A stretch of 51,388 nt of DNA, filler included, from Jimgerdemannia flammicorona (lineage: Eukaryota), in NCBI GenBank assembly GCA_003990765.1. It is 2 parts of 2 records of this genome, joined end to end, with 100 filler letters (N's around TTAATTAATTAA, not from the genome) between each part and the next. Parts side by side here need not be neighbours in the genome. Positions count along the whole stretch, not along the records: positions 1 to 25,651 come from RBNJ01000806.1; 1 more part is not named here. One strand, given 5' to 3'. The notes beneath the pieces are model-generated. The model did no database searches. It was not told where the DNA came from and saw only the letters and a list, made by a program, of their open reading frames with translations. Shown here piece by piece: positions 2,821 to 29,100 of this stretch (its first letter is position 1; each line of letters starts with the position of its first letter). Both the position numbers and the translations under genes were made by a program.

Positions 2821-3699
2821 TATTTCTCACATTAAATTGCTTATTTCTGCTGTTTCTGTTTTTACTGTATCATTATTATTATCACTATATCTTTGTTATT
2901 ACTAGTCTCTGCTATCCATCCAAATATACCATGATACTCTATCTCTTCACTATCCTTTTTCTTACCACTATTGCTATCTGGTATCTCTTTGTTACCTACT
3001 GCCTCTTTATCATTATTACTACTAGTTTTATTCTCTCAAACTGGCAATAGTCCCAATAGTCTATCTAAGCTTGGAAAGATTTATGGAATTGATCTTGACT
3101 TGGTACATTCTCAACCTCCTATTAGTAAACTTAAAGCTATTATAGAGACTATCAACAAATACCTACCACTTGGAATGAGAAAATTATGTAAAATAAAAAA
3201 AAAGCAGAATTTATTTGATGGTTTGTTTGATCTTTATGAAGTTCCTAATGATGAGTGAATGATATAGCCAATCTCAAAAGATCAGTAATAGCAAAATTAA
3301 GCTAAAGAGTTTACAATAATTGATTTTGGATAGAAAAATATAGAAAAATCATAGAATAGACAATTAGATAAAAAGTCATTTCAGATTATTTATATTCAAG
3401 TTATGAAGATAAAGTTTGGCAAAGAGGAGTATTAATAAGAAGAGTACAAATACCAATTATAGAGTCAACTGTCATTACAAAACCAGAGCCACTAGTACTA
3501 ATAGCACTATATTATATTTTAAAGGTACTAACTGTATATACTGTAGAGGAAGCAATATTATAAGTAGAAAGTGGACTTATTGCAGAATTTAGAAATAAAT
3601 ATAGCAGCAACAAGAAGGCTTGGAAATCAATAAAGAAAATAGTTAATAAATATATTCTAAGTTGAAAATTTATTATAATAGAGTAGTGAGTGAGTATAG

Positions 3700-4160
3700 T
3701 ATATAGTATCACTTCAGCTTGAGATTGGATAAACAATAGATATATACTGCCCCAGCCTGAGTTTGGGTGAATGATGGACATATATATACCACCTTAGCCT
3801 AATATATTACTTCAGCTTGAGATTAGGTGAATGATAGTCATATATACTGCTTCAGCTTGAGATCAGGTAAATGATAGATATATATACTACTTTAGCTTGA
3901 GACCAGGTGAATAATAGACATATGCTGCCCTAGTCCAATATATTGCTTTAGCTTGAGATTAGATGAATGATGGACATATATACCACTTCAGTTTAAGATC
4001 AAGTGAATGATAGTTATATGCCACCCCCATTCAATATGCTGCTTCAGCTTGAGATTGTATGAACAATGGATATATATATTACTTCAGCTTGAGACTGGGT
4101 GAATAATAGACATATATTACCCTATTCTGATATACTACTTCAGCTTTGAGATTGGATTGG
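3700..4160 (+). repeat. Tandem array family B (~40/60-bp units, core CTTCAGCTTGAGATTGGGTGAATGAT)
   Basis: Repeated cttcagcttgaga(t/c)(t/c)(g/a)g..gaa..at..acatat units; boundaries approximate. Confidence 0.85.
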
Positions 4161-4449
4161 AGCCAGAATATACTTTATTACTATAATTAATTTCTTAAAC
4201 TAAATAACTAATTAATCAATCAACTATATTATATTATAGAAATTATATAAGGAATATATTCTCCATGAAAAAGATTTTCTTCATCTATATACTGATTATA
4301 GACTTACTACTGATCAAAATACTAGTTACTAATAACTGATCTCAAAAATTGAACATAGATGGGCACAGACTAAGATAGATATTCAAGAATGATATATATA
4401 TTTAGAAGTATATTTAATAATTACAATTTATTATTTTTATATATCTTAG

Positions 4450-6800
4450 ATTAAAAACATATACTATGCTATTGATTTTGAAGTACAAAAGCTACTTGAA
4501 GAAGAACAGACTATAGTTGAATGTGATCTTTTAGATAAAGAAGATGAGATTGCAGAACAAGAGGTATTTAATAGACAAAATATAGTATATTCTGATGCAA
4601 TTCTTGCAGAAGCTACTTTAGAAGAATCTAGAAAAGCTATTAGATTTGACTTTACTCAATATGCAGCTCAAAAAGAGATTTAGGATATTGCTCTATATAC
4701 TCTTACTCAATATACCAGATAATATATATTAGTAATATTGATTAAATATATATATATAAAGAAGATTTATATTTATGAGATTTTTTATTAAATATATTTA
4801 GAATCTAGAATCTATATGAAGAATTTCAAGCAATACAATATAAAGAGCTCTTTAATGAGACATTTAAGCCTAATATTATAACAGAATAAACATCTTCAGA
4901 TATTTGTATATATATATATATATATTTCAACAATGTGATTTTCTAGACAAAACAGATAAATAAGGTAATAAGCTTGGCTGTCAGAGTAGAACAGTAAGTT
5001 TTATTTATTATTTATTAAATATTTTTATTAGTCAAATTATTAAGTTATTAAATAATTTATTTATATATTTAAATTATAGTATTTAACTACAATGACATTT
5101 TACTCAGCTGTTAGCTGAAATTATAATAAAATTATACAATAGTCTAATCAAAGATGTTACTTTGATTTAATACAAGGTGGATGAAACAGGAATCCATTTT
5201 TATCTTGTGAAGTTAGTAGATATATATGTAGCCTTTATAAGTGAAAAGCTCAAAATAGTAAAGCTATAGAGTCTGTATATATATTGAAGCTTGAAGATAT
5301 GAAATATTTATATAATTATTTTTAGAAAAATAGAGCAATTAATGTCTGCCAATATGTGGGTATTATTATATTATATTTTACATTTCTCTGGTATATTAGA
5401 AATATGTAGATATAAGAATAAAGACAATGGGTACATTAATGAGTTTAGGGCAGATATAGATCAATAAGTTTGGAGCAGATGTCTAAAATAGTCACCTGAT
5501 CTTAAGCTAAAGTGGTATATCAGACTGGAGTGGTATATATCTATCATTTACTTAGTCTCAAGCTGAAGTAGTATATATATCTATTATTCATCTGATCTCA
5601 AGCTGAAGTGGTATATATATCTATCATTCATCCAATCTCAAGCTAAAGTTTCATATTAGGCTGATGTAACATATATGTATCTATCATTCACTTAGTTTTA
5701 AGCATATATGTCCATCTTTTACCTGATCTCAAGCTAAAGTACCATATTGGACTAGGGTGACATATATCCATCATTCATCTAATCTTAAGCTGAAGCAGTA
5801 TATCAGACTGAGGTAGTATATATCTATTATTTACTCAGTCTCAAGATGAAGTAGCATATATGTCTATTATTTACTCAATCTTAAGCTAAAGCAGAATATT
5901 AGGCTGGGGTGGTATATATCTATATTCACTAATCTCAAGCAGAAGTAGTATATTGGACTAGGGTGATATATGTCTATTATTTATCTGATTTCAAGCTAAA
6001 GTGACATATTGGGCTGAGGTGACATATGTTCATTATTTATTCAATCTTAAGCTAAAGTGACATATGTTCATTATTTACCCAATATCAAGCTGATATGACA
6101 TATATCCATTATTCTCCCAATCTTAAGCTAGAGTGATATATATCTATCATTCTCTTGCAAATTTCATAGGTAATGGAGATAATTACTAATAAGTTTTACA
6201 ATTATATATAATATCTATTTTTCTATCTATGTCTTCTTTGTAGAGAGAAAGTAATGAAGATTGATCAAATAAATATTGAATATAGAAAAAGTATATTATT
6301 TTAATATTGAATTTTTACAAAACAGCTCAAAAAGATGATATGTAAGTATAAAAGTATATATTTAAAATGAGTAAACAATCAAGATTATTACTATAATATT
6401 CATTTTATTTTTAGAATAATAGGTGTTAAGCCATTTGTTCTTCATCAAAATGACCACAACAAATATCTCTATTCTCTGTATGTATTTCTCAGTTAGAGAC
6501 ATTTCCATGGAACTTCTGCTGGCTTTTTTTTTCTACTAATAGATTGAATTAACTGCCTTAATTTGCACTACTCACTGAGCTACAAATCTTTTAAAGATCA
6601 GTTTGAATATAATTTGCAAGCTATTGAAATTGCAAAATGGTATCTATTTGATACTTATTTTGATATAGTAGATATCAATACTATTACTACTATATAGACC
6701 TATTAAAGCAAATTAGTGAAATTTGTGAATGGTATGGATAGAGCAAAGAATTTGATAATATAACTATTTTTTGTTATTTGAAAAATAAATATAATATCAA
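4450..6800 (+). pseudogene. Intron-containing tyrosine recombinase remnant (Crypton-like YR transposon), heavily C>T/G>A mutated
   Basis: Manual translation, reverted residues in brackets: 5176-5320 GG*NRNPFLSCEVSRY..L..*KAQ....ES....KLEDMKYLY; 6221-6260 FYLCLL[R]RE[E]V (catalytic Arg box); ~6300-6337 LILNF[R]KTAQK; 6422+ GVKPFVLH; ~6647-6682 F[G]T[H][S]..[RRGGC]QY; ~6721-6780 ICEW.G[W]SKEFDNITIF[R]YL (catalytic Tyr). Motif order matches fungal YR domains. Not in the ORF track because of stops. Confidence 0.72.
5495..6150 (-). repeat. Tandem array family B, inverted, inside an apparent intron of the YR pseudogene
   Basis: Repeated tcattcacccaatctcaagctgaagt, the reverse complement of the family B core. 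Confidence 0.85.
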
Positions 6801-6934
6801 ATAAAGGATAAGGGACAATTTTACCTGACCTTATAGAAAGAGAAGATTTGAAGAGAATTAGTATATAAATAATTTAATAAATATAATTATTATGATGAGA
6901 GTAAATTCTGACCATAATAAATGAGATTTCATAT

Positions 6935-8330
6935 AAGATTAGGTAAAAGATGGATATATACTACTTCAGTTTGAGATTTGATAAATGATGGATATATGCC
7001 ACTTTAGCTTGAGATTGAGTAAATGATGAATATATACTGCCTTAGTCTGATATACTATTTCAGCTTAAGATTGGATGAATGATGAATATATGCTACCTCA
7101 GTCTGATATACTGTTTCAGCTTAAGATTAGATGAATGATAGACATATACTACTTCAGCTTGAGATCAGATGAATGATGAATATATACTGCTTCAACTTAA
7201 GATTAGGTGAACAATATACATATGCCACCCTAGTCCAATATGCTGCTTCAGCTTGAGATTAGGTAAATGATATATATATACTATCTCAAATAGTATACAA
7301 ATACTACTCTAGCCCAATATGCCACTTCAACTTGAGATTGAATAAATGATATATATATACTACCTTAGTTCAATATATTGCTTCAGTTTGAGATTAGGTG
7401 AACAATGAATATATACATATACCACTTTATCTTGAGATTAGATAAATGATAAACATATATCACTCTAGCCCAATATATTACTTTAGCTTGAGATTGGGTG
7501 AATGATAGATATATATGCCACTTTAGCTTGAGACTAGGTGAATGATAGACATATTTTGTTACAGCTTAAGATTGGGTGAATAGTATACATATGTTGTCCC
7601 AGTCCAATATGCTGCTTCAGCTTAAGATTAGGTAAATAATATATATATATCACTTTAGCCTGATATGTCACTTTAACTTAAGATTAGATAAAAAATAGAC
7701 ATATATACTATATCAGCTTGAGATTAGGTGAAGATATATATATGCTACTCTAGCCCAATATATTGCTTCAACTTAAGATTAGGTAAATGATAAACATATA
7801 CTACCTCAGTCCAATATACTACTTTAGCTTGAGATCAGGTAAACAATGGACATATATACCACTTTAGCTTGAGACCAGATGAACAATAGACTTATACTAC
7901 TCCAGTCTGATATGCTACTTTAGCTTGAGATCAGGGAAATGATGGACATATTTCACCCCAGTCTGATATGTCACTTCAGCTTGAGATTAGATAAATGATG
8001 GACATATATACCACATCAGCTTGAGACCAGATGAACAATGAACATATACTACCTCAGTTGGATATACTGCTTTAGCTTGATATTGGGTGAATAATAGATA
8101 TATGCTACCTCAGCTCAATATACCACTTTACCTAACCCTAGCTCTAATTATTATCTGGACATAAATACAATGGACAGCTTGAAGTACAGATGGTCAGATG
8201 GTTACATTAGATGTGAATACTTAGGAGAATAATGAATATATATCACTTTTGCTTATGATTAGGTAAGCTACTTTAGCTTAAGATTGAATAAATAATGGAC
8301 AGATACTACTTCAGCTATGAGATTGGGTCA
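6935..8330 (+). repeat. Long tandem array family B
   Basis: More than 20 copies of the cttcagcttgagatt core in the same orientation as 3700-4160. Confidence 0.88.
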
Positions 8331-11346: not shown

Positions 11347-11848
11347 CCATCTCAACGCCAATGCTCTGACAAGGACGACGAGGAAATCGTAGAACCTGAA
11401 CAAAGTCTTTTTGAGTGATACAGTATGGATGGAGGATTGTTTTGTGAAAATGTTTGAACTTGTCTCCTCTTCCTCTCATTTTGCTTGCGAATAGTTTTGT
11501 AATTGAATTTCTAATTGTCATGCTATGTTTTGTCAATGGAAGAAAGTCATCTCAGAATATTGTGTTTTAGTTTGAATTATGACATCTCTCTCAATAACAC
11601 GCTCTTCCAGAGTAGTCGAATATGGATACTGATGTGGTTTACAAATACAGAAAGATGCATAGTTGGTAATGTTCCTCAGAAAATAAATTGTTTCGTTAGT
11701 AATTGGCTTTGGTTTTGATGTTTGTAGTGAAGAATTTTTTACAATAATTCTATTTACATATATCTTAAGAGCAGTCCACCTATTTTAATAATATCAAAAT
11801 AATCTAGTACTCCATTTTTAAAATATTAAAATAACTATTTATAAGTAT

Positions 11849-13117
11849 TGTGACAAACCAAGACGTACTACCCGAATCATATCTTTACCAGATGACGCGA
11901 ACAAGATGACGTGAACACTCAGCTTAGTAACCAGCAACCATTTGCTGCGGAAACTGTATAAATAGCCAGACATACCAGAAAGGGTCTGTTTACCTGTACA
12001 GACTCTGTACACTGTACAGACTCTGTACACTGTACAGGTCCTGTACACCGTACAGACTCTGTACACCTGCCATAAGTAGCAGATCTATAGTTAGCCACAT
12101 AGTAACCAGATAGCAACCAACTTGTATAAATTACCCCAGTGGCGAGAGTGAATAAAACCTCAGTCCAAAATACAAACACCAAAGAAGTCTCTAAAGATTG
12201 AGCATTGGTCCCCTTTCCACTCCGGTCCACTTTCCGATACAAAGCTTGAAGATTTGCCGCCTAAGTTCAAGGAGAACTTCGCTGCCTTTGAAGAGAAACC
12301 CTTGGTTTGCTTGCCAGCTAAGCCTGAAGATTCCGCCTTTTCCGCCTTTCCAAGAAAGCTGCCTTGCTCAAGCCAGTTTCTGATGCAACTTCGCAGTGAT
12401 TCGTCGCGCAAACGAAGCCAGTCTTTGATGTAACTTTGCCAAGAGACCCTTTCCCAAAGAATGCCGCCAGTTTTATCTGCCATATTCCCAGTTAGAGCCG
12501 CCGATTCAGGAAGAATCCACGCCATTGTATTCCCAGAAAGAGCCATCTGAGTTATTTCCCAGAAACCTGCCGATTCAGGAGAATCCGTGCCATCCGACGT
12601 TTTCGAGTTATCCACATCCCCAGAAAACCCATGCCATCTGAGTAGTATTCCCAGTTGAAGCCAAAACTGCGACATCCGAGTTATTTGTCATTCCCAGTGA
12701 GCCCAAGTTATCTAGTTATCTGTCGCCATACATTCCCAGTGAGCCAAATCGAGTTATCCGCCAAGTTATCAGAACGTCCGCATAAGGAGAACCTTTAGAT
12801 TGTCAGACCATCACACCCAGAGATCGCATACTTTTGGAGATCGTCGCGCTACACAGAGATCGTCACCCAGAAATCGCTACACAAAATTGTACCATTCCCA
12901 GTTGACCCAAGAAGGAAGTCCATTCACACACAAATCGCCGCTACACCCAGAGAACCGTCCCAATAAGGAAATCGCTCGCACAGTATCCAGATCTTGACTA
13001 TTATACCGCTAAACACCAAGAACATTTTGTTGCTTTTAACAAAGTAACTGGGGGCTCAAGCCAAACTACATCAACCCCCAACCTTGTAATTTGCCTCCAT
13101 TGAGCCAGCACGTTACA
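11849..13117 (+). repeat. 5' LTR (1269 bp)
   Basis: Starts TGTGACA, ends CGTTACA, followed by the PBS; homologous to 20715-22016. Confidence 0.93.
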
Positions 13118-13119
13118 TT

Positions 13120-13137
13120 TGGGGGCTCAACTGGGAA
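13120..13137 (+). promoter_or_regulatory. Primer-binding site, tRNA-Pro type (TGGGGGCTCAACTGGGAA)
   Basis: TGG begins 2 nt after the LTR end. It resembles the MLV tRNA-Pro PBS TGGGGGCTCGTCCGGGAT, and its reverse complement looks like a tRNA T-stem/acceptor/CCA end. Confidence 0.8.
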
Positions 13138-16100
13138 GATTTCAAAATCAATGTGACTTTTCAGCTCACAAGAACCCACAGTCAAACTGGATACATTTGA
13201 TACAACACCAACCTCTGCTACTACAGGAGAACCAGTCATCACTAGCATCTGGACAGGAAGAGAAGTAATCACCTCAAGACTTGCCAACTACCCAGCATCA
13301 GAAGGATCTCAACCAGAAGCAGGAGGCAGTACAGCGCGAAATCCTCAGCCAGATCAACCAGATCAATCAGATCAACCAGACAATACAGGCAGCCCTGCTG
13401 GAGATTTTGGAGAACTTGCACAAGAACTAGAAGACTTTATTACCCGGACCCAACATCTTACAGCCAGATACCCCACACCAGTCCCACCAATTTCACCAAT
13501 AGAACCCCTACCACAACCTCTTGGAGAACCAGAAGTAGCTCCTACAAGGATACCTAGGTCTACTCCACCTCACCCAAGAACGAGGACACCATCTTCAAGA
13601 TATCCAAGCACCCGGGCCTCTAGTGACAGTTCAGAAAGTGAACCAGAATCAGAATCCGAATTTGAACCAGAACCAGAAGAAAGTGACGAAGAAATGGCCA
13701 CCTCATTGCCAATCTTTGCAGGATACCCAGAGGAAGACCCCAGAGAATTCCTTGATGGAATTGAAGGAATTGCAGCCTTGAGGAATCTCTCAGATGAAAG
13801 GAAAATCGCCATCTACAAAGCTCAGCTCAGAGAACCAGCCAGAGGGATTTTCCATCGAACAGCAAACAACCCAGATTCCGAACTAGCAAGGCAGATACAA
13901 GCAGCAGTCTCCTATGAGCTAGAATATCAGGCCATGGTCTACTGGCTCATAGAAAAGTATGCAGGAAATGAAACCTGCCACAAGGCTCAAGAATCCATTA
14001 TGGGAATGAAGATGAATCTTGGAGAATTACCCAGAGCCTTCTTCACAAGAATCCAGAAGAGAATGCACTCTGCCGGGTTCAATGCCACCAACCAGGACAT
14101 CATAGGTCCAATGACCTTCATGAATGGAATTCCCCCGAATATTGCCCAGCATGTCCGCACCCTAGGCATCAGAAGGTCTGAAGAGCAGGTAGATGCAGCC
14201 TAAGGATTCTTTGATGTCAGGCAAGGAACTACCTAGAGTGACCATGACAAGAAGGAAGATAAAGAAGATATCCTGGTCAAAGCCCTGCAAGGACTCCTTC
14301 AAGGACAAGAAAGGTCTGAAGAAAGAAGGCCAGCCAAGGAAGGAAAAAAGGACAGAAGCAAAATTCAAGACCTCAGCTCCAAGTTAGACCAATTGGTTGG
14401 ACAAATTGAAAAACTCACCACATGCGAAAATCAGGACTACCAAAACAACAGAGGATACCCACCACAGAGGAGCCAAGGTTATCCACCCAGAGATAATAGG
14501 AATTACCAGCAAGAAGAAAGAAGGTACCCAGCCCGAGACAGAGCCCAAGTCCAATGCTTCTACTGTGGACAATTTGGACACTATGCCACTGAATGTGACA
14601 ACAAAAGAAGTGACCGAAGGGACTCAGAACCACCAAACTGAAGGAATGACACCCAGTACAAGAAGACTGAAGCCCATCCTGTTGAAGATTTCGAGGAAGC
14701 AAGCAATAGTGAAGACTACAGTGACCTAGACTTGTACCCTACCAAGGTTACCACCCGAAAGACAGTCTACCCAGCAGAAAAAAGAAAGAGACCTGTGGGA
14801 AGACCATCCAGGAATATCAGTAGGAGAATTATTCAAGAAGAAGATGAAGAACATGAGGAGGAACAAGTTGAAACACCTCCCCGAACCCCTTCACCTTTTG
14901 TGCCCAAGACAAACGAGTTGCTACCAGAAGATGAAGAAATAGAACAAGAAGAACGGGAACCTGTTGCTCCAAAGCCTAAAAAGAAGTACACCCCGAAGAC
15001 CATGCCTAGGGATATTTACAATGAAGCCTGGCAGAAGATTCAAGAAGCCAAGATGGAAGTTCCTCTCCTGCAGTTCTTGCAACTGATACCAGCTGGAGTC
15101 CAAAACAAATTGCTGAGAACCACCAGGTCTAGCACTGACTGAGTTCCAATCCCACAGCAAGAACCAGCCTCCATTCCTGTCCAAGCAGCTGAAAGACATG
15201 TCAGCACCTACTTACATGGAGACATTGGAGGACAAAAAGCAAAAATCCTCATAGATACAGGAGCAGCTGTCTGTGTCATCGCCAAACGATTCCTGGATAC
15301 CCTCCAATGGCCCATTGATGGACCATCCAACCTCAGCATCATAGTAGCAGATGGAGCCTGAACTCAACCCCTTAGAGAAGTACGAAATATCACCATCTCC
15401 CTTGGACACATTCAGTTCTCTATCCCCAAAGCTGTTGTCACCGAAGCTGTCACCTATGACATGATTCTTGGCACCAACTGGATGAAGGAAATGAATGCAG
15501 TTGTTGATATTGGCCAACAAGTACTCAAGTTTGACTACCGAGGCAAGAAGTATAGAGTTAAGGTGACCAGCTATGAGCAATCGAAGAAGAAGAAGAAGGT
15601 TACCATTCAAGAAGAGTATGCCAGCAGTGAGGATTCTACTACAGAAGAAGAAGAAGAATCTGAAGATGGAAATGATCCCAGACTCAATCCATGAATTAAC
15701 CTGGTGGACGACAGACCAGAAGACAATGTGTGGGCTAAGAACACCATCCCCATCACTATTGGAGCCATTGCAGGAGAAGCCAAAGGATGCCCCACATACC
15801 TCAAGAGACACAAGTGCCCCGAACACTCCTCCAAGATTATGGGAAAAAGGAAATCGCCTGGTACAGCTTGCCCAGAATGCAGAAGAAAGAAGAAGAAGTG
15901 CAGACATATTCCAGAAACACCTGCGACCAAAGTTGCAGAAGTACAAGCAATTTGGGGTCAAGAATCATCTGAGGAAGAAGAAACTTCTGACCAAGAAGTT
16001 CCTGAACAAGAAGCACCTGGTGAAGAAGAAGTTCCCGAACTCATCCCCTGGGATGACCCTCGGTGGACACCACCTGAAGACAATGACCCCTGGAATACAG

Positions 16101-16882
16101 AGGAAGGACCCAGTACCATCACCATTATTCCCAAGAAAGAAACCCACCAAGAGAAAGCTTTCCGGCTAGGAAGATGTCCACATCAAATGGTCTTCCACTC
16201 TCCCCGAGACTACTGCTATCAGTGCCATCTGTTGGACCAACAAGAAAGACAGAGACCCCAGAGGCCAGAACCCCCAACTACTCTTGCACAATCCACCACC
16301 TTTCAAGAAGTCACCACAAGGTTACAAAGTCGATTTAGGGGACAAGGCTTCTTCACCTGAACAGAAATATACCCCTTGTCTACCCTTCCCCCAACCTATG
16401 ATCAAGATGGGTACCGATTTCCAAGACAACAAGAGATAAATAGCCAAGAACATCATTTCTGGGCAATGGGATATTGCAACCATGGAAGACACCCTGATTG
16501 CCGAGACTGCAGAAATCAGAAGATTCACCTCAGTCATGATGTTGCAGTACACACCCTGAAGAAAGGAGATAACCGAAGCCAGATCCGAAAAAGCCAGATT
16601 CGAAAAAGCCAGACCAAGAAGCCTGGAAAAAGAATTCTCAAGATCTACGATTTGGGAGAAGACATCCTAGCTCTTATTAGACATGCAACCCGCCAAGGAT
16701 GGGCAGAAGATGCCACCAACTTCATGGAAGCCCTTGATCCTACAGGAAGAAGGGGAATCAATTACCTCCGAGACCCCTCTACTGGAGCCAGATGGCCACA
16801 CCTCAACCTTAGAGCTTGGAGGCTTTCTGCCAGTGGAGCTTCAGCCTTAGGGAAGCCCGAACTCAGCGAGGATATTGCTCAG

Positions 16883-17284
16883 TATGCCCTGCTGCACCCC
16901 AAGGCCAAACCCCCGACCAAAGCCCACCCAGAGGATGTAGGATATGATCTTCACAGCCTGGAGGATGAAAATATCAAGCCAGGAAAAACCTTCATGGTCA
17001 GAACAGGAATAGCCATACAGCCACCCCAGGGAGCTTATATTCAACTGACCTCAAGGTCTGGACTTGCCAGACAAGGGATAACTGTAGAAGGAGGAACTAT
17101 TGACCCTGGATATACAGGCGAAATCAAGGTTATCCTACACAACAGCAGTACAGAATGGCACCGAATCATTAGAGGACAGAAGATTGCCCAAGCAGTCTTC
17201 ACGAAGGTCAAGACCCCACAGTTACAGGAAGTCTCTGAACTAACTGAAGGAACAAGACAAGCTGAAGGATTTGGAAGTTCAGAC
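16883..17284 (+). other. dut: Trimeric dUTPase domain within ORF1
   Basis: All five motifs are present: VGYDL, SRSGLA, GTIDPGYTGEI, GQKIAQ and RQAEGFGSSD. Confidence 0.95.
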
Positions 17285-17634
17285 AGGAAAGAGGTACATC
17301 TCCTTCAAGTCAACCACCTCAAGAGGAATGTTCCCCAGCAAGTATACCGGCAACCAGTCAGACTGCACAAGAATCTCATCCTGGAGCCTGGAGAACAAAC
17401 TACCTTCGAAATATTTGTACCACCTGACCCCAGGAACCTTTTCTTCAAACCCAAGGAAGACATCCCACACCTGGACATAGAGGGACACACATTCCCTGAC
17501 AAGATGAACCCAGTGCACTCTCGAGGAACCAACCAAAGTTGGGAGACCATCATCTTGCCAAAAGGAACCATCATAGGACACCTGGTGTCTTTTCTCAACT
17601 GAACTCATAGGGAAGTTTATGAACTAAACCTATC

Positions 17635-17682
17635 GGGAAATGGCAAAAGGTCCCAGAAGAAAGGAAAGGCCCCTCTGCGACC
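17635..17682 (+). promoter_or_regulatory. Putative -1 programmed ribosomal frameshift signal
   Basis: G_GGA_AAT heptamer (17635-41) in ORF1 phase, a 7-nt spacer, then a stem GGTCCCAGAAG/CCTCTGCGACC (9 of 11 pairs). It lies in the 70-nt overlap between ORF1 and the -1 RT frame. Confidence 0.7.
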
Positions 17683-19099
17683 CAGGAGACAGTGAAGCCT
17701 TCCACCAACATTGGAGAAGAATTGACACCTCAACAACAGCAACAACTAGTAGAACTCCTCAACAAATATCAAGATATTTTCACCACCGATTTTGGCAACC
17801 TGCCATACAATCCATCATATCATCACAGCATAAATACAGGAAGTGCAACACCCATCTGGCAGAAACCCTATAGAATACCCCATCACTTGAAAACATTTGA
17901 AAAGGAGCACATCCAAGAACTCTTAGACAATGGAGTCATCCGACCCTCTACCAGCCCCTGGGCCAGCCCTATACTTATTGTACCAAAGAAAGGAGGATGG
18001 AGACTCTGCGTGGATTACAGGAAACTCAACTCAGTCACTGAAAAGGATGCTTATCCTTTGCCCAGAATCGATGACCTTTTGGACCAGTTACAAGATGCCA
18101 GATACTTCAGCAGTATGGACCTCTTTGCAGGATTTTACGAGATCCCCATGGACCCCAAGGACATTCAAAAGACAGCCTTCCTTGCCTTAGGAAAACTGTT
18201 TGAATACCTCTGAATGCCCTTTGGACTTTGCAATGCACCCCCCACCTTCCAGAGGATGATGAATTCAGTCTATGCCCCCTTGATCCACCACTGTCTGATT
18301 GTATACATGGATGATTCCAACATCTATTCAGCAAATTTCGAAGAACACCTGCACCATCTAGAGGAATTCTTCAAGCTCACCCGCAAGAATCACTTGAGAC
18401 TGAATGCAAAGAAATGCTACTTTGGAAAACAGAAACTCGAATTCCTTGGATTTGTGGTCTCCAAAGAAGGAACTCATGCAGACCCAAAGAAAACCGAGAA
18501 GATCAACAATTGGCCAGTACCCAAGACTCCGAAGGAAACACTATCATTCCTGATGCTAGTATCCTACTACAGAAGGTTCATCAAGAATTTTGCCCAAATC
18601 GCTGCCCCAATCCAAATCCTTCTCAAGAAAGGAGTACCATTCAAATGGACAGAATCACAGGAAAAAGCCTTCAGAGAACTCAAGAACCTCATGACTACAG
18701 CACCAATCCTTATGTGCCCCAATCTACAGAAGCCATTCATCCTGTACACAGATACTTCCAAAGATGGCCTAGGAGCAGTTCTAGCCCAGGAAGGACCTGA
18801 CCAACAGCACCATGTGATAGCTTATGCAAGCAGGGCTACCAATCAGCAGCAGATGAACTATGGCAGCACCAAACTGGAATGCCTTGCAGTCATATGGGTG
18901 GTCACTCTGTTCAAGCATTACCTCATCAGAAAAAGGTTCACCCTGATCACAGACCATGCAGCCCTCAAATGGCTATTCAACTGCAAGGAACCTGCCGGAA
19001 TTCTAGCCCGCTGGATCCTTATCCTCCAGGATTACCATCATTCACAAAGCAGGGAAAGCTCACAACAATGTTGATGTACTTTCCCGCCAGCCCCAATGA
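17635..19099 (+). pseudogene. pol: ORF2: reverse transcriptase - RNase H
   Basis: Motifs: SPWASP, WRLCVDYRKLN, YPLPRIDDLL, [R]MPFGLCNAP (TGA at 18211), YMDD 18304-15, YTDTS, LECLAV, TDHAAL. After a small deletion at ~19033 the tail TIIHKAGKAHNNVDVLSRQPQ* is shifted by one frame. Confidence 0.93.
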
Positions 19100-20163
19100 A
19101 CTAGAGGAAGGGTGTCCTGAGGAACCACACCTTAAAGGAAGCTCCTCAGACTATCAAAGCACAAGAAGATCTTATCTGAAAAGAACATCAGAAAGCCCAC
19201 CAAGGACAGACAAGCACAGAAGACAAGATTCGAAAACAATATCAACATTGGCCCCACCTCAGAACTCAAGTCCGGGACATCATCCAGAAATGTGACATCT
19301 GCCAGAAGTACCAAGGAAAGAAGAACTATCAAGCCCCTCTGCAACCGATTCCCCCACCCACTCACATCTTTCAAAGATGGGGAGTAGATGTAATTGGACC
19401 TCTACCAGTTACACCAAGAAGAAACAAATACATCCTTGTATTTGTAGAACATCTGACCAAGTGGCCCAAGGCTTTCCCAATGGAAATCGCAGATGCCTTA
19501 ACCATTGTGGGCCTCCTCCATGGGCTCACACTCAGATATGGACCCCCAGAAGAACTCATCTCTGACCGAGGCACAGAATTCATCAATAACATAATCACAA
19601 GTTATGCCCGAATTCACAAGATCCACCTCAAAAGGACCACATCATACCACCCACAGACCAATGGCATGACAGAAAGAATGAACCAGACCATCAAGAAAGG
19701 ACTTGCCCAAGTCAACCCTACTAATTGGGACCTCTGCTTACCTGAGATCCTATGGGAAATTCGGAATACCCCTGCCACATCTACCAAACAAAAGCCATTC
19801 AAAATGATGTTTGTCAAGAAAACCAGAACTGCTGACTATGAGAATCTTGGAGACCTCCTCAAGAAGGCAGAACAGTTACGAAATCAAGCCCAAGGACAGA
19901 TTATCAAAGCCCAGGAAAGACAAAAGAAGTACTATAACCAAAAACAGAAAGATCAGGAGATCAAGATTGGAGATCAAGTCCTAGTCTGGAGAAGTATGAT
20001 TGAGACAAACTTTGCCACCAAACTAGAACCGAAATGGAAAGGACCTTATCTTGTACACAATATCAGAGGAACCAGCATCTATTTAAGAAGCATGGATGGA
20101 TGAACCCTGAGAACACCAGTACATATCAATCGCCTCAAAGTATATTTCCCTTCTACACTATGA
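19096..20163 (+). pseudogene. ORF3: integrase (HHCC, DDE, GPY/F; no chromodomain)
   Basis: Motifs: EHQKAHQG...CDICQK; WGVDVIGPL; ISDRGTEF; GMTERMN; KWKGPY; VHINRLK. Internal stops at 19102, 19177 and 20101. The ATG 19096 start is inferred. Confidence 0.9.
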
Positions 20164-20675
20164 GCCAAAGGATTGATCAGCGCCTCCAGACATTGGTCCT
20201 TAGCTCCTTCCAAGCCCTACCTGTTCCTCTACCTCAATTCGGCCAAGCCAATGGGAACTCCCTTCAAAGGATCTAAGTTCATCAAGAAAATCTCACCTTG
20301 GCCAGACGCCTACTACAAGTCCATCAACTGCAGGCCTATTATGCAATCGGTGAACAATTGCAGAACCTCCCAGCCCCAGAACAGACCTACATCAGAAATA
20401 CTATGGGTCTGACCAGAAGAGACACTACTGCTGCAGACAGACTATACACCATTTACAAATGAAATGTCACAGCCCTGATACAGGCGCAATTCTCTCTGAA
20501 TGACATCCAAGGAATGAACCCTGTTACCTACCTGAGTATCATCAACTCTGTCGAAATCCTCTTCTCTGAAGAAGAAGAAGAGCCCCTAGAATGGAGTAAC
20601 CCCAGTACAGACAACGAAGATGATGGAACAGGTATAGATGCAGAAGCAGCCTATGCTTATTGGAATGATGACTGA
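20160..20675 (+). pseudogene. ORF4: unknown 171-aa protein in the env position
   Basis: ATG 20160 to TGA 20673-75 in one frame with two revertible stops (TAA 20274, TGA 20460). It fills almost all the space between integrase and the PPT. Confidence 0.72.
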
Positions 20676-20679
20676 AGAA

Positions 20680-20714
20680 TAGTCTGGGACAGACTACCCT
20701 TCAGTGGGGGCTGA
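20680..20714 (+). promoter_or_regulatory. Pre-PPT hairpin (TAGTCTG-GGA-CAGACTA) and short PPT-position tract (AGTGGGGGCTGA)
   Basis: Perfect 7-bp stem at 20680-20696 and a G-run immediately 5' of the 3' LTR. Confidence 0.6.
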
Positions 20715-22016
20715 TGTGACAAGCCAAGACATACCACCTGAATCATATCTTAACCAGATGACGCGAACAAGATGACGTGAACACTCAGTCTAGTAACCAA
20801 CAACTGTTGCTGTGGAAAACTGTATAAATAGCCAGACATACCAGAAAGGGTCTGTTTACCTGTACAGACTCTGTACACCATACAGACTCTGTACACTGTA
20901 CAGGTCCTGTACATCGTACAGACTCTGTACACCTGCCATAAGTGGCAGATCTATAGTTAGCCACATAGTAACCAGATAGCAACCAACTTGTATAAATTAC
21001 CCCAGTGGCGAGAGTGAATAAAACCTCAGTCCGAAATACAAATATCAAACAAGCCTCTAAAGATTGAGCATTGGTCCCCTTTCCACTCCGGTCCACTTTC
21101 TGATACAAAGCTTGAAGATTTGCCACCTAAGTTCAAGGAGAACTTCGCCGCCTTTGGAACTATTGGTTCGCTTGCCAGATAAGCCTGAAGATTTCCACCT
21201 TTTCCGCTGCATTAGAAAGCTGCCTTGCTCAAGCCAGTTTCTGACGCAACTTCGCAGTGATTCATTGCACAAACGAAGCCAGTCTTTGACATAACTTTGC
21301 CAAGAGACCCTTTCCAAAAGAACGCCGCCAGTTTTATCCGCTGTATTCCCAGTTAGAGCCACCGATTCAGGAGAATCCGCGCCATCTGAGTTAATTCCCA
21401 GTTAAGCCGCCGTTTTCAAGAAACCCGCCAAATCTGCATCATCCACCACTTTCGAGTTATCTGCATTCCCAGAAGAGCCCGATTCGGAAGAACTCACGCC
21501 ATTCGAGTAGTATTCCCAGTTGAAGCCGAATCCGTGACATCTGGGTTATTCGTCATCCCCAGTGAGCCTGAGAAGAATCCACCACCAGCATTATTCCCAG
21601 AAAGGAGAACCCGCGCCTTACATTCCCAGTGAGCCAAATCGAGTCGACCGCCAGAAATCGCATACTTTTGGAGATCATCGCGCTACACAAAGAAATCGCC
21701 CGCTACCCAAGAAGGAGAACTGCTAAATTATCAGACCGTCACACCCAGAGATCGCATACTTTTGAAGATCGTCATGCTACACAAATTGTACCATTCCCAG
21801 TTGACCCAAGAAGGAAGTCCATTCACACACAAATCGCCGCTACACCCAGAGAACTGTCCCAAAAAGGAAATCGCTCGCACAGTATCCAGATCTTGACTAT
21901 TATACCGCTAAACACCAAGAACATTTTGTTGCTTTTAACAAAGTAACTGGGGGCTCAAGCCAAACTACATCAACCCCCAACCTTGTAATTTGCCTCCATT
22001 GAGCCGGCACGTTACA
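20715..22016 (+). repeat. 3' LTR (1302 bp)
   Basis: TGTGACA...CGTTACA; colinear with the 5' LTR at both ends, rearranged in the middle. Confidence 0.93.
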
Positions 22017-23499
22017 CTATATATAGGCAAATTTACCTGCAAAAATTATTATTTTACCAAATATAGTATTTACAAATATATATATTTAGTATAAAATCTC
22101 TCTTTTTATATATATTATAGTATAAATATATATATAATTACTATAATATAAATAAAAAATATTATAATAATATTTCTATTAACTATTATTATCTGCTCAT
22201 AATATTGTTATCTTAAGTTTAAAATTTTCACACTTTTAATAAAATCTTAATATAATCATTTTGTTATCTGAAGTTCAAAATCCTCACACTTTTAATAATT
22301 GTTAGAAATTCTCAAGATCTTAAAATGGCCAATTGTCATATATAACTATAAAACCTCAAAGTGACTATGAAATCTCATAGCTGATATAAAGTTTTTTATA
22401 ACTAACATATCTTTTTAATAACAGTTTGCAAATAAATATTAATCAAAAGATGAGCATCCCAATTAATTACTTTAACCTCCCAACTAATATTAAAAACTAT
22501 ATTTATAAAATCTAAACCTTTCTTATTAAATTAACATTGAAAGAAGTATGCATTATAGTCAATGAAGAAATATTTTATACATCAAGAACTGGCATTACTT
22601 CTTCACTAACTTTAGCCAGTAATAAGAATACTTCAGATAATGAGAAGTATATTTGGATGAATTGAAAAGCCAAGGCAAGTACTATATAAAATATCAGAAT
22701 ATATAATAAGTAATGAGCCTAGAAGAAAGCTACCACTACAATCCAAAAGAAAGCTATTACTATCTCCTAAAAGAAAGCTACTACTGCTATCTAAAAGAAA
22801 GCTACTACTGCTGCCACTATTATCATTGTTACCTCTACCACTACTACATATCCCCACTACTACTACTACTATTATCACCCCTACTATTACCCCTACTATT
22901 AAATAAAAAAACAAAGAGGATATTAAGCAAGCTCAGAAGAAAGCTTAAGATATCAACAAAATATAACAAATTGGTACTGCTCTGTGAAAAGCCTAAGCAA
23001 TTCCATTACAATATATATAATCTATTGAGATTTATATATACCTCTATGCCAAGAATACTACTCTTGAAGATATTTTCAAGAACTATCACATTTTTGGAAA
23101 AGTTTTATATTAAGATGAACATGAATAAAAACAGAAAGAAACAGATTTAGAATGAGTACAAGTTATTATAAAACTTGTCAAATTATCACTATCCTATCTT
23201 GATGAGTCAAAGAAGTTAAATAAGTATATTTGAAAGACAAGCAAAATATATGATATTACTGCCTAGCTAACCCCAATCAGGTATAAAATTATAGGAAATA
23301 ACCAAATCAGACTTGATTAATATTGCTAAAAACTATATTCCAATATACTTTATATGTTTGTAAATAATAATAGTTCTACTATATCTACTATAAATATTAT
23401 GAACAATATGTAATTATGATAAATAAATTATATAGATACTTATAATGATCAGTTTTGGCTCTCAGGGTCCAGGGAATATGGATTGAGATACTATAGTAA

Positions 23500-24000
23500 A
23501 AGGTGTCTATTTTGAATGAAAGGTGGGTGATCATGAAGGCTATAAAGGATGGGTGACTATGAAGGCCATAAAGGGTGGATAGCTATAAAGAGCATGAAGA
23601 ATAAGTAACTATAAAGGCCATGAAGGGTGGATGGTCATGAATGTTATGATGGATTGGTCTCTGTCTCTCAGATGAAAAGTAGTTGAAAAAAAAACTACTT
23701 TCGAAAAAAAAAAAAAGTATAGAGTGGTCACAAAGAGAGTGAGTGGCCACAAAGAGAGTAGATGACTACAAAGAGGTTAGTGGCTATAAAGGGACCATGA
23801 GTAAAGGGTGAGTAGTATGGGTGATAGTGAAGGAGATGTGTTGTTATGAAGGCTGCTCTGGTGGTTGAAAAAAAAAAAGCATAGAGTAGCTGCAAAGAGA
23901 GTAGGTGGCTGCAAAGAGAGTGGGTGACTACAAAAAGGGATGACTATAAAGAGAGTGGGTAGTGGGAAAAAAACATAAGTAAAGGATAGATAAGTGAGTG
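23500..24000 (+). repeat. Degenerate ~18-bp purine-rich repeats (ggccatgaagggtgggtg / cacaaagagagtgggtgg)
   Basis: Recurring short units separated by A-runs; boundaries approximate. Confidence 0.55.
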
Positions 24001-24009
24001 AAGGGCAGA

Positions 24010-25560
24010 ATAACTTATCAAATAAAATAAAAATAAAAGAGAGATATAATTATTAAGGCAGATAGCCAGACACAATATATAATTTATCAAATATAATAAA
24101 AATAAAAGGAAGATATAATTGTCAAGACAGATAGCCAGACACAACATATAATCTATAAAAATAAATAAATAAAAAGTAGAATCACTGAGGCAGATAGCTA
24201 TATATGAAATATTATCTATCAAATAAAATGAAAATAAAAGAGAGATATAATTGTCAAGGCAGATAGCCAGATATGAAAATAAAAGAGAGATATAATCATT
24301 GAGGCATATAGTCAAAAATGATATATAACTCATCAAATAAAATAATAAAAAAGAGATATAATTATCAAGACAGATAGCTAGACATAACATATAACCTATC
24401 AAATAAAATGAAAATAAAAGGGAGATATAATTATTGAGGTGAATAGCCAGACATGATGTATAACTCATCAAATAAAATAATAAAAGTGAGATATAATCAT
24501 TGAGGCAAATAGCCAGACAAGATATATAACCAATCAAATGAAATAATAAAAGGAAGATATAATAATTAAGGTAAATAGCTGGACACAAAATAAAACTTAT
24601 TAAATAAAATGAAAATAAAAGAGAGATATAATTGTTAAGACAGATAATCAGATATAAAAATGACCCATCAAATAAAATAAAAATAAAAGAGAGATAGAAT
24701 CATTGAGACAGATAGCCAGACATAATATATAGCCTATCAAATAAAATAATTAAAGGGAGAAATAATCATCAAGGCAGATAGCCAGACATGATATATAACT
24801 CATCAAATAAAATAATAAAAAGGAGATATAATCATTAAGATAGATAGCCAGATATGAAATATAACCCATCAAATAAAATAAAAATAAAAGAAAGATATAA
24901 TCATCAAGACAGATAGTCAGATATGAAAATAACTCATCAAATAAAATGAAAATAAAAGGGAGATATAATCATCTAGACAGATAGCCAGACATGATATATA
25001 ACCTATCAAATAAAATAATTAAAGAGAGATATAATCATTGAGGCAAATAGTTAGATATGATATATAACTATTAAATAAAATAATAAAAGAGAGATATATT
25101 CATTGAGGTAGATTGCAAGATATGATATATAACTCATTAAATAAAATAATAAAAGGGAGATATAATCATTGAGGCAGATAGTTAGACATAATATATAACC
25201 AATCAAATAAAATGAAAATAAAAGAGAGATATAATAATTGAAGCAGATAGCCAGACATAATATATAATCCATTAAATAAATAATAAAAGAGAGATATAAT
25301 CATTGAGGTACATAGATAGCCAGATATGAAAATAATCCATAAAATAAAATAAAAATAAAAGACATAATTATTAAGACAGATAGCCAGACATGACATATAA
25401 CCCACCAAATAAAATAATAAAAAGGAGATATAATTATTGAGGCAGATAGTCAGACATAATATATAATCTATTAAATAAAATAATAAAAGAGAGATATAAT
25501 CCTCAAGGCAGATAGTCAGATATAAAATATGATCCATTAAATAAAATGAAAATAAAAGGA
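24010..25560 (+). repeat. Tandem array family C, 66-69-bp unit, roughly 20+ copies
   Basis: Unit ~GAGATATAATCATTGAGGCAGATAGCCAGACATGATATATAACCTATCAAATAAAATAATAAAAGA; spacings of 69 and 66 measured at 24353, 24422 and 24488. Confidence 0.9.
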
Positions 25561-25651
25561 GTCTTTTCAAGTGGTTAGGTATAAAGAAGATGAGCTGCAA
25601 GAAATAAAGAGTCAGGGAATGAAGCAGAGAGAGTAAAGACTCCTTAAAAAA

Positions 25652-25751
25652 NNNNNNNNNNNNNNNNNNNNNNNNNNNNNNNNNNNNNNNNNNNNTTAAT
25701 TAATTAANNNNNNNNNNNNNNNNNNNNNNNNNNNNNNNNNNNNNNNNNNNN
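25652..25751. other. Artificial assembly gap/linker (44 N + TTAATTAATTAA + 44 N = 100 bp)
   Basis: Symmetric N runs around a six-frame-stop linker. Confidence 0.95.
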
Positions 25752-26177: not shown

Positions 26178-29100
26178 GATTGGCACGCATCGAGGCGAGA
26201 AATCGCTGAAGATGGGCCTGTTGTGCGAGTTGCGGGTATTGCGCGGCCAGTTGGGCAGCAAAGGCAGGATTGGCCTGGGCAGAGGCTACGATGGCGTTGG
26301 CGGAGGGGTGCATTTGTGGTTGCGAGTCATTGCCTGTGGGGACACCGGTGATCGAGTGGGCAACGGAGGAGACGGGCAAGATATCAGATTTTTGGACGCT
26401 CAATAATCTCCTCTCACCAAGTTCAGGGGGGCGGCGTTCATGAACACAACAATCGCTAACCTGAGGGTTGTCCTCCTGGTACGGTGACCCCAAACCTCTG
26501 TAACGGTGCCGACACCGGTGGCCTTCCACCAGCCGCTGCTGCAGCCAACATTGCCATCTGTGAGATACGTGGGGGTAATACAAATGTCAAACATCAACGC
26601 GACAAAGCAAAATATAATTCCACAATTGATAAAGATGGCAACCAACCTGTTGCTGCTGCCGCATCATAAGCGCCGCCTGTAACTGCTCCGGCGGCAGAGT
26701 CCTCGTAGCCGCAGGCGACAACCGATTGATGGGCAACTGGCCCGGTTGTTGAGCTTGTATTCCTGGTGCAGATTGTTGTCCTGGTGCGCCGGGCGGCCGC
26801 ACCATCGGTTTGTTCTGCGGAGATGCTACAGGGATGCCACGCCCGATGGCGGCTTGCGGCGGTCGGACTTGTTGCACGAGCGGGTGAGTCATGGGGATCG
26901 CACCTGGATGCGGTGGACGAGCTATCGGAGACTGGTGACAAAGTTAGAGAGAAATGAGAGAAATAAAAATATTGTTCGAAGTACGTATAGGTTAGGGGTT
27001 ATATCTTATGTTTACAAGGCTAATAAAGAGAAGTACGCGGTACTATAGCAAGAGGGACGTTTCCGAGAGACATGTACATTTGCCTGCGCTCCACTAAGCG
27101 CGTACGCCGCCATGTTCTGTCGCTGCTGTTCCATGAGGGCCTGCGCGATTTGCCTCTCCCGCTGGTGCTTCATCATGCTCAATTCCATGGGTGAGGGTAG
27201 TCGTTGTCCGGTGGAAGACGTGCCGTGCGCCTCGATAGTACTCTTGGGCGCTGGTGCAGCTACTAATCCGAAAGCGTTCGCGGAAAATGTTTCAGTGGAG
27301 CTGCACAGAAGTGTGCATATGAAATGATTCAACAGGTGTGTATACACCAATTAAGTTTCATAATGTGCCCATCGACGCGATGAAAGAAAGAAAGAAAAAA
27401 TCGTACCCGATGGCTTTTGCGCATGTTCTCTCTTTTTCTGCGTCTTCTTTATGGCCTCGAAAATGCTATACTGCCTCTGCTTCCTCCGCATACTCTCAAC
27501 TCGTGGCATCGCCTTTTTAAGCGAATCTTTCTTTTGCCTTGCCTGCAATGCGAGCGCGGCACTAGCAACAGTGGGGGAGGGAGGTGTTGACAGGTTCGAT
27601 GAGGCATTGAGTAGATTATTGGGCAGGTTGCCCAGTCCGAGGGGAAGAGGCCGAACAGGAGTCACGGGTGTTGTTGGCTGCGATGTTGATGTAGAAGACG
27701 AGCCCGGTGCTGACGCGGCGGTGGGAGTGGTGGTACTCTCCTTTTGCTTGTAGCGCTCAAAGCAGTCCCACGACACGCGGTGCTCGCCCGTAATGGGCGC
27801 CCGGATTGAGTTCATTGAGTCGCAAATCAGATCCCAGTTGTACTGGAATGGGCGGATTAGGGACGTAAGCAAATTGTCGTCCTCTTCTGTCCAATTCAGG
27901 GGCGTTCGCTGAAGTGCTGGGTTCGGTGGCGCAGGCTGTGGGATTTGCAGGCCAGGGAGATCTTTTGATTTCTTCGGTGCAAAGATCGCTGTTTCGAAGC
28001 AAACCGAGATTGTCAGAATGATTAAAATAAAATAAATAAATAAAAATGAAATGGCCGCGTTGCCCAAAGACAATTAAGACAACTCACGAGAAATCAGAGG
28101 CGCCGTATCATATCGCATAAATGACGCCAATGGCTTCACAGGCTCATCTCTCAACCTTTCCTCTTCTGCATCCATATTTCCATCATCCCAGTCTTCCGGC
28201 CGCCGCCTCTTCTTACCCGCAATCGCTGGCTCTTCCCTTCTGACGGCCTTCCTCGCAATGAACTTTGTGATGGGCACCACGCGACCGAACTCTACCTCGT
28301 CCCAATACGCATCGTTATCTTCTGGCTTGGGCGGCTCGTACATTGGTAAGTCTGGGAACAGAGACTGCGGGTCCAAAAGCATGACGTCAGCCATCGCCGT
28401 CAGCATGAAAATGGTCTTGTCAGACTGCAGGTCGACGATGGCGGACCGATACTGATGAATTAGGTTAGGTGATACCGGCGGGGGCATCGACAGCATATCC
28501 GAGGGCATGACGGCCTTGCCCTTGAGTTTGAGCGTCGTCTTGGACTCCTCGAGACCGTCGATGGCCATGGCATCGATTAGCTCGTTGTCAGATTGCGACC
28601 GGAGCTTTAACGGTTTGAACGCATCCGTCGACTCCAGCTGCGGTTCGGCCTTGACCACGGGCTCCTTTGAGGCCAGTCCGAACATGGCGTCCGATTTTAT
28701 TACAGATGAGAAATCCACGGGCGTCTCTGGCTCTTCGACCTTGAGCTCGGGTTCGTGGGAAGTTGCGGAGCTGGCCTCCGCGGTTACGGTTAACGAAATA
28801 TCCTCCATCTCGTCTACATCTTTGCTTGTCGGCGCATCCCCCTCGACTTGGTCTTGCTCTAGATCCATCATCTCGTCTTCGGGATGGAAAATGCGTGGGC
28901 TTGGGCTCCGCCGCTATGGGCAACAAAGTAAGATCATTGTTGATAATAATAATAATAACAAAACACAAAGGCACTGAGGAATATGCCACAGAAAACGCAT
29001 GCACTTACCCTCACACACACATTCTGCTTGTCATCTGCCTCGTGCCATTCCATTACCCACCGCGCCACCTCGTATGCCGTCGCAATTTTCCATCTGCGCT

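Follow-up and report, generated by a model that had tools for sequence, protein, structure and literature searches.

In victoriviruses, which infect fungi, an AUGA or UAAUG, together with an RNA structure located immediately upstream, drives a stop-restart mode of translation, and in HvV190S a 38-nucleotide (nt) region comprising the AUGA and an H-type pseudoknot is both necessary and sufficient (PMC6631646). According to the accessible portion of a 2017 review of reinitiation, in caliciviruses and influenza B a ribosome that has finished a long upstream frame needs an upstream tethering RNA element, the termination upstream ribosome-binding site (TURBS), in order to restart, and the sole retrotransposons named are LINE-1 and SART1, a non-long terminal repeat (non-LTR) element whose open reading frames ORF1 and ORF2 are translationally coupled through a UAAUG (PMC5972666). 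Here we report on a stop-start overlap within the pol region of a single LTR retrotransposon of approximately 10.2 kb, found at positions 11849-22016 of a 51,388-nt stretch of DNA (hereafter the window) from Jimgerdemannia flammicorona (assembly GCA_003990765.1), which is composed of two joined parts, positions 1-25,651 being those of RBNJ01000806.1. The copy in the window is a dead, decayed Ty3/gypsy element, and its tetranucleotide ATGA, at 19096-19099, appears to be the decayed remnant of a conserved stop-start overlap that divides pol into a reverse transcriptase (RT)-RNase H frame and an integrase (IN) frame set one base back.

In the window, positions 19040-19099 (ATT CAC AAA ... CGC CAG CCC CAA TGA) read IHKAGKAHNNVDVLSRQPQ followed by a stop, that is, an RNase H tail ending in QPQ-TGA with the terminator at 19097-19099, as stated in a preliminary description of this DNA. 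The ATG at 19096-19098 overlaps this TGA and had been assigned to the integrase frame; the assignment holds, since the frame reads MN, a stop, RKGVLRNHTLKEAPQTIKAQEDLI, a second stop and KEHQKAHQGQ...CDIC, and Pfam finds there the integrase zinc finger and core (rve, Integrase_H2C2 and zf-H2C2). For comparison we used two further DNA copies of the family, the metagenome contigs L001 and L002, together with family fragments with 77-92% identity retrieved by a short-protein search from JGI, ENA and Logan sources. Codon 3 of the integrase frame is indeed a TAG (19102), and codon 28 is in addition a TGA (19177), where L001 has Arg and L002 has Gln. Trp and Gln had both been put forward as the ancestral residue at codon 3; the comparison favors Gln, encoded by CAA in L001 and L002 and present in the protein sequences P0122, P0123 and P0125, and lends nothing to Trp.

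The best-preserved copy, L001, harbors an unbroken RT-RNase H frame of 494 codons (1310-2794) which ends in LSRMTQ-TGA, and an ATG at 2791 which overlaps this stop and opens 354 unbroken integrase codons in the -1 frame. The preliminary description had named, as the finding that would speak against a split, intact copies with CGA in place of TGA and a single frame running from RNase H into integrase; L001 retains the TGA and has its integrase in the -1 frame. In the window copy, by comparison, the RNase H body (18214-19030) and the integrase share one frame and only the 60-nt tail between them lies in the +1 frame, because 8 nt that both other DNA copies possess are missing at 19036, a gap that corresponds to the small deletion previously noticed at about 19033. 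This shared frame, as well as the many other lesions of the window copy, could be taken to indicate that the ATGA arose by chance during the decay of one copy, through two compensating indels. However, the 8-nt gap is the sole indel in RT-RNase H-IN against L001, none is found at the ATGA, and L001 displays the identical ATGA with both frames open, which argues that the overlap is not a product of decay; we consider this explanation barely conceivable and rejected it. A 29-nt intron extending from GT 19076 to AG 19104, which would join ..NNVD to RKGV in frame, was likewise rejected, as L001 and L002 lack this AG and the AG that comes after it gives 31 nt and the wrong frame.

The stop is present in all seven family sequences that reach it, as TGA in the window and L001, as TAA in L002, and as the end of the independent fragments P0126, P0127 (37 member sequences), P0128 and P0129, which terminate at the same point in QPQ, MTQ, MTQ and MAQ, respectively. 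Of the six sequences that extend over the start, five (window, L001, P0122, P0123 and P0125) have the Met, and the sixth, L002, has ATA. P0123 (354 residues, 19 members) and P0125 begin with MSQRKGV, and P0122 runs through in the -1 frame and contains PMNQRKGV. At the level of the tetranucleotide, the window and L001 carry ATGA, one of the two overlaps (AUGA or UAAUG) typical of victorivirus termination-reinitiation, and the decayed L002, in which the integrase frame is broken, carries ATAA, with the stop kept and the Met lost. No further copy of the family was detected among viral contigs searched with three integrase peptide patterns; the search of genome contigs returned 19 eukaryote-like loci inside bacterial metagenome-assembled genomes (MAGs), none of them of this family, and the two nearest MAGs, searched whole, gave only loci already found.

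In order to assess whether the two frames have evolved under constraint, the ratio of nonsynonymous to synonymous divergence (Ka/Ks) was estimated by the Nei-Gojobori method. Between L001 and the window copy, RT-RNase H displayed a Ka/Ks of 0.085 with a Ks of 0.84 (490 codons used, 4 skipped), and the integrase a Ka/Ks of 0.093 with a Ks of 0.65 (342 codons used, 12 skipped); for the integrase of L001 and L002 the ratio was 0.121. The integrase is under purifying selection as tight as that on RT-RNase H. A founder frameshift propagated in a non-autonomous lineage, with integrase borrowed in trans, would give the split to all close copies by descent, and no wholly intact element is found among those copies. 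An unexpressed frame, however, would drift towards a Ka/Ks of 1, and the integrase remains at 0.09-0.12 over a Ks of 0.56-0.65, like RT-RNase H; furthermore, the break point recurs in more distant families whose RNase H is 50-60% identical, as well as in stand-alone integrases with 42-46% identity. A shared defect of this kind is, in our view, highly improbable. Since lineages that bear the split have diverged at the majority of synonymous sites (Ks 0.65-0.84) and their integrase is conserved, the arrangement is likely to be an ancestral and working feature of the family, and we hold it very probable that these elements possess a conserved stop-start split of pol into RT-RNase H and a separate integrase frame. 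The suggestion of the preliminary description that the AUGA serves reinitiation is thereby sustained as regards a conserved and ancestral split, and the restart itself is an inference from the features of the junction discussed below.

The split appears to extend beyond the family to more distant relatives. A set of 127 RNase H fragments (P0126-P0253 without P0130), comprising the best 120 matches of P0126 and the RNase H fragments found earlier, was inspected for the LS[RHC] motif, which is present in 85 and missing from 42. After this motif the fragment ends at 3 residues in 15 of the 85 and at 4 residues in 7, with at most 5 at any other distance; four of the 15 are members of the family, and 18 of the 22 short-ending fragments are not. 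Ends piled up at one position point to real stops, because contig ends would scatter. On the integrase side, an exhaustive search with P0123 recovered 78,459 proteins at E <=0.001, and 148 of the 150 listed were examined. Among the best matches listed are stand-alone integrase proteins with 42-46% identity, and at least 12 of these, with 394-453 residues, share a homologous start M[N/D/E]xxxY and have the first His of the zinc finger at residue 59-72. The starts of the 12 are MN in five, MD in four, ME in two and VN in one. MN is what an ATGA followed by A would encode; other overlaps or spacings must exist as well, since MD and ME are impossible from ATGA.

Among the long relatives, selected by a length of at least 454 residues and displaying 39-52% identity, RNase H and integrase were found on one protein in 119 of the best 120 listed, and in those aligned approximately 50-60 residues separate the LSR from a GLLY-like motif. 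All nine eukaryote-like MAG loci with a stop in view terminate 15-630 residues past the LSR. The best long match, P0002, a gene model of Rhizophagus clarus, lacks at ~580-600 the ..GK.N.VD.LSR tail, and its RNase H body is joined directly to the integrase N-terminus; most likely, an intron was predicted across the same kind of split. Such elements are mishandled by gene predictors, of which P0002 is probably an example, and pipelines that score an intact pol as one frame would class them as dead. Named close relatives of the element were, among the matches listed, only from Rhizophagus.

If pol is divided in this manner, ribosomes have to cross two boundaries, and the first appears to be of a conventional type. 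At the dUTPase/RT overlap a heptamer of the form X XXY YYZ is found in the zero frame, G GGA AAT in the window (17635-17641) and G GGA AAC in L001 (1322-1328), and a stem-loop begins 7 nt 3' of it. By stability, the 40-nt window 3' of the heptamer has rank 29 of 4062 in L001 and rank 225 of 6968 in the window copy. Because the heptamer sits between the gag-protease-dUTPase and the RT frames, RT, and not the protease, is predicted to be the first product that requires a frameshift. None of the three copies presents a slippery heptamer at the RNase H/IN junction: no zero-frame X XXY YYZ was found over the final 195 nt of the L001 RT-RNase H frame, in the tail of the window copy or in L002. Nor is there a stimulatory structure 5-9 nt downstream, the strong structure being located 5' of the stop.

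These observations bear on a second explanation, namely that, within the last 8 RNase H codons, ribosomes shift by -1 (or +2) without a canonical site and produce, as in ordinary Gag-Pol, an RT-RNase H-IN fusion in which the ATG is idle. Such a fusion would solve the packaging of integrase, it would place integrase in the -1 frame, the commonest among retroelements, and it would employ a type of shift that the element already uses once; moreover, in L002 and P0122 the -1 frame stays open over a longer upstream stretch. Against it stand the missing heptamer, the closure of the -1 frame by a TGA 8 codons 5' of the ATG in L001 and in the window, and the position of the strong structure, upstream of the site instead of downstream, given that upstream hairpins attenuate -1 shifting. 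In addition, the Met is kept in five of six sequences and is the first residue of the integrase proteins delimited by gene callers. Taken together, we regard a fusion by frameshifting as quite unlikely. Transcriptional slippage was rejected as well, as no homopolymer of five or more is found in the 130 nt upstream in any of the three copies.

The junction does present a 39-nt hairpin (19049-19087 in the window) that lies within the codons for AGK..VLSR and ends 8 nt 5' of the ATG. Its predicted stability is -20.6 kcal/mol in L001, -15.8 in the window and -17.4 in L002, against a mean of about -3.9 (standard deviation of about 2.7) kcal/mol for 40-nt windows across RT-IN, and in each of the three copies it is the most stable of these, none of the other windows being as stable (0/2507 in L001, 0/2502 in the window and 0/1191 in L002). 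Five of its pairs vary between copies; three of them stay paired through A-U/G-U and one is altered on both sides. The mismatches are two A-C, both in the decayed window copy. A search of Rfam over 11800-22100 returned no match at the gathering score.

With no slippery site at the junction, a conserved Met and the strongest local hairpin located 8 nt upstream, we infer that the integrase is reached by termination followed by reinitiation. According to the mechanism that we propose, gag-protease-dUTPase would be translated from the 5' end, and G GGA AAC/T would let a fraction of the ribosomes slip by -1 and enter RT-RNase H. Once these have terminated at the UGA, some 40S subunits would be retained on the RNA and restart at the overlapping AUG, and the product would be a free integrase starting with Met-Asn, outside the Gag-Pol fusion. 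The hairpin may refold behind the terminating ribosome and thereby hold or position the 40S subunit; in victoriviruses this role is played by the structure upstream of the AUGA. Taken jointly with the conserved split, termination-reinitiation at the ATGA is the reading that best accommodates the features of this junction, and we give the combination slightly better than an even chance of being right.

Several observations weigh against this reading. The DNA evidence comes from three copies, two of which are decayed, and L001 itself contains an in-frame stop in the dUTPase part (849-851), so that no fully intact element is found among the three. The arms of the hairpin encode AG(K/R) and VLSR, and coding explains part of their conservation; likewise, the pair changed on both sides corresponds to two CpG transitions in the decayed copy. 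A pseudoknot-type pairing, in which an 8-nt complement of the loop occurs in the 5' flank, is present in L001 only, having been lost in the window through the gap and in L002 through a change in the loop. The UGGGA core of calicivirus TURBS motif 1 was not found within 130 nt upstream in any of the three copies. The last residue is H, F or Y in five of the 22 short-ending RNase H fragments, and as no codon for these residues has A in third position, the exact ATGA overlap is impossible in the families concerned. In L004, a more distant element that is the nearest of the nine MAG loci and whose record is partly N-masked, the RNase H frame ends, in the region 2955-3085, in ATGA, 15 residues past the LSR, but only a short frame follows this ATG and the integrase (MERKKYRNVLEHL...) begins about 118 nt later, a spacing for which a separate mRNA or scanning would account no less well than tight coupling. 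Finally, a free integrase, off the Gag-Pol chain, would have to reach the particle by some other route.

Some of these points are shared by a further explanation, in which the integrase is translated from an RNA of its own, either spliced subgenomic or internally promoted, or by internal ribosome entry, and the ATGA reflects tight packing of the two genes. The frames being truly separate and the integrase having a conserved Met are both in agreement with it, as are the distance in L004, the frequent occurrence of stand-alone integrase proteins among relatives and the strong hairpin, which could belong to an entry site. Nevertheless, no conserved splice acceptor is found upstream, the CAG that precedes the ATG in the window being ATG in L001 and L002, and independent RNAs do not require that an exact one-base overlap and its stop be kept over a Ks of about 0.7. 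We consider expression from a separate RNA or entry site unlikely. As for termination-reinitiation, the broader claim is more tentative: the proposal that a Ty3/gypsy lineage, comprising the family and its relatives to about 45-60% identity, makes free integrase by hairpin-guided AUGA/UAAUG restart falls, in our judgement, a little short of an even chance.

Compared with the capsid/RNA-dependent RNA polymerase junction of victoriviruses, this locus presents the same AUGA, a downstream frame set one base back and a strong RNA structure just upstream. In contrast, the victorivirus case concerns a double-stranded RNA (dsRNA) virus, and the present one an LTR retrotransposon with integrase as the predicted downstream product; here the upstream frame is itself entered by a predicted -1 frameshift, and the structure is a hairpin, with pseudoknot-type pairing in one of three copies. 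The TURBS systems of caliciviruses and influenza B resemble it in having a long upstream frame whose stop overlaps the next start or lies beside it, but differ in motif 1, whose core is missing here; a signal of the TURBS type was rejected, TGGGA being found in none of the three copies within 130 nt upstream. SART1 likewise is a retrotransposon with a stop-start overlap for its second frame; however, it couples a gag-like ORF1 to the whole of pol and requires a structure downstream of the overlap, whereas in the present element pol itself is split and the structure lies on the 5' side.

With an ordinary Ty3/gypsy pol the element shares the domain order, the RNase H tail ..GK.N.AD.LSR and the HHCC finger. 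In the ordinary arrangement, however, RT, RNase H and integrase form one frame from which the protease frees the integrase, and here a stop occurs 3 codons past the LSR. Betaretroviruses have gag, pro-dUTPase and pol read with successive -1 frameshifts, and the location of the dUTPase next to the protease and the canonical -1 heptamer before RT are reminiscent of them; in contrast to betaretroviruses, gag, protease and dUTPase are here in one frame, and the second change of frame takes place without a slippery site. In both LTR retrotransposons and retroviruses integrase is taught as the tail of Gag-Pol, which carries it into the particle. A search of open-licence papers and bioRxiv, in the text that these made available, returned no LTR retrotransposon that employs termination-reinitiation or whose integrase has a start of its own, a result that leaves absence from print unproven. 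Thus, the recoding signal would be a known one, placed in an element class and at a gene boundary for which no earlier description was found.

If the proposed mechanism is correct, LTR retroelements would gain their first termination-reinitiation signal, and the AUGA-plus-upstream-structure signal of fungal dsRNA viruses would also serve retroelements. It would add a third, purely translational tier of expression (Gag > RT > IN), in which the dose of integrase is set by a second recoding step and its delivery is possible without a Gag tether. The approximately 140 nt around the junction would, in that case, constitute a compact and testable reinitiation signal.

The remaining features of the element are in agreement with its assignment. 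The coordinates that follow refer to the window copy, in which the LTRs, the coding frames, the heptamer, the hairpin and the ATGA are all on the + strand. The 5' LTR (11849-13117) and the 3' LTR (20715-22016) were delimited as direct repeats and by alignment to each other; both run TGTGAC...GTTACA, with the TG...CA termini of LTR retrotransposons, and a candidate primer-binding site starts at 13118, after the 5' LTR. Both LTRs contain, within U3 (12150-12230 and 21010-21090), short tandem repeats of a CTGTACAGACTCTGTACAC-like unit. A single frame at 13157-17670, interrupted by 8 in-frame stops, encodes according to Pfam gag with a CCHC knuckle (zf-CCHC), protease and dUTPase. It is followed by the RT-RNase H frame at 17623-19099 (RVT_1 and RT_RNaseH), interrupted by a TGA at 18211 and by the 8-nt gap, and by the integrase frame at 19096-20163, with HHCC finger and core, interrupted by the TAG at 19102 and the TGA codons at 19177 and 20101. 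The Pfam order, CCHC knuckle, aspartic protease, dUTPase, RT, RNase H and integrase H2C2 finger plus core, is the domain order of Ty3/gypsy elements (Metaviridae) with an extra dUTPase between protease and RT. The gag-asp_proteas match is under the curated cut-off (26.2 vs 28.2 bits), and the E-values are 2.3e-28 for dUTPase and 3e-36 for RT_RNaseH. The dUTPase domain is located at 16900-17290, upstream of RT, shares one frame with gag and protease, and is also found in L001.

The extent of decay is apparent from the two LTRs, which differ by 137 mismatches over 1219 aligned bases and 10 gap runs, and from 12 in-frame stops, 8 in gag-protease-dUTPase, one in RT and three in the integrase, 10 of the 12 being TGA. 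The last of these, at 20101, comes earlier than the natural stop of the integrase frame (20161-20163). The ratio of observed to expected CpG is 0.35 in the element and 0.92 elsewhere in the window. Five in-frame stops of the window copy are covered by other copies, which have Arg at four TGA and Gln at the TAG; the stop at 17600, for instance, is an Arg codon in L001, and the residue corresponding to 20101 was read from a comparison of proteins. CpG decay explains the TGA stops, and the pattern looks like methylation-driven C-to-T decay of a transposon. An alternative genetic code, with TGA and TAG read as sense, was rejected, since the other copies have Arg or Gln at these sites and the element is CpG-poor.

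Outside the element, the window contains AT-rich minisatellites at 1100-2900, 3700-8100 and 24000-25600, with periods of 17/51/85, 56/96/152 and 66/135/269, and a run of N at about 25650-25750. An open frame at 27351-28073 (-) encodes a Myb-like DNA-binding domain (PF13921, E 5e-08). At 34682-38161, long open frames rich in Ser/Thr/Ala/Pro, which carry FG-type repeats (..FGFG.., ..FSFG..) as well as internal tandem repeats of 66 and 75 nt, gave no Pfam match; they look like a nucleoporin. Two ammonium-transporter genes with long open frames (PF00909, E 7e-104 and 1e-109), located at 42170-43312 (+) and 45307-46950 (-), respectively, face each other approximately 2 kb apart.

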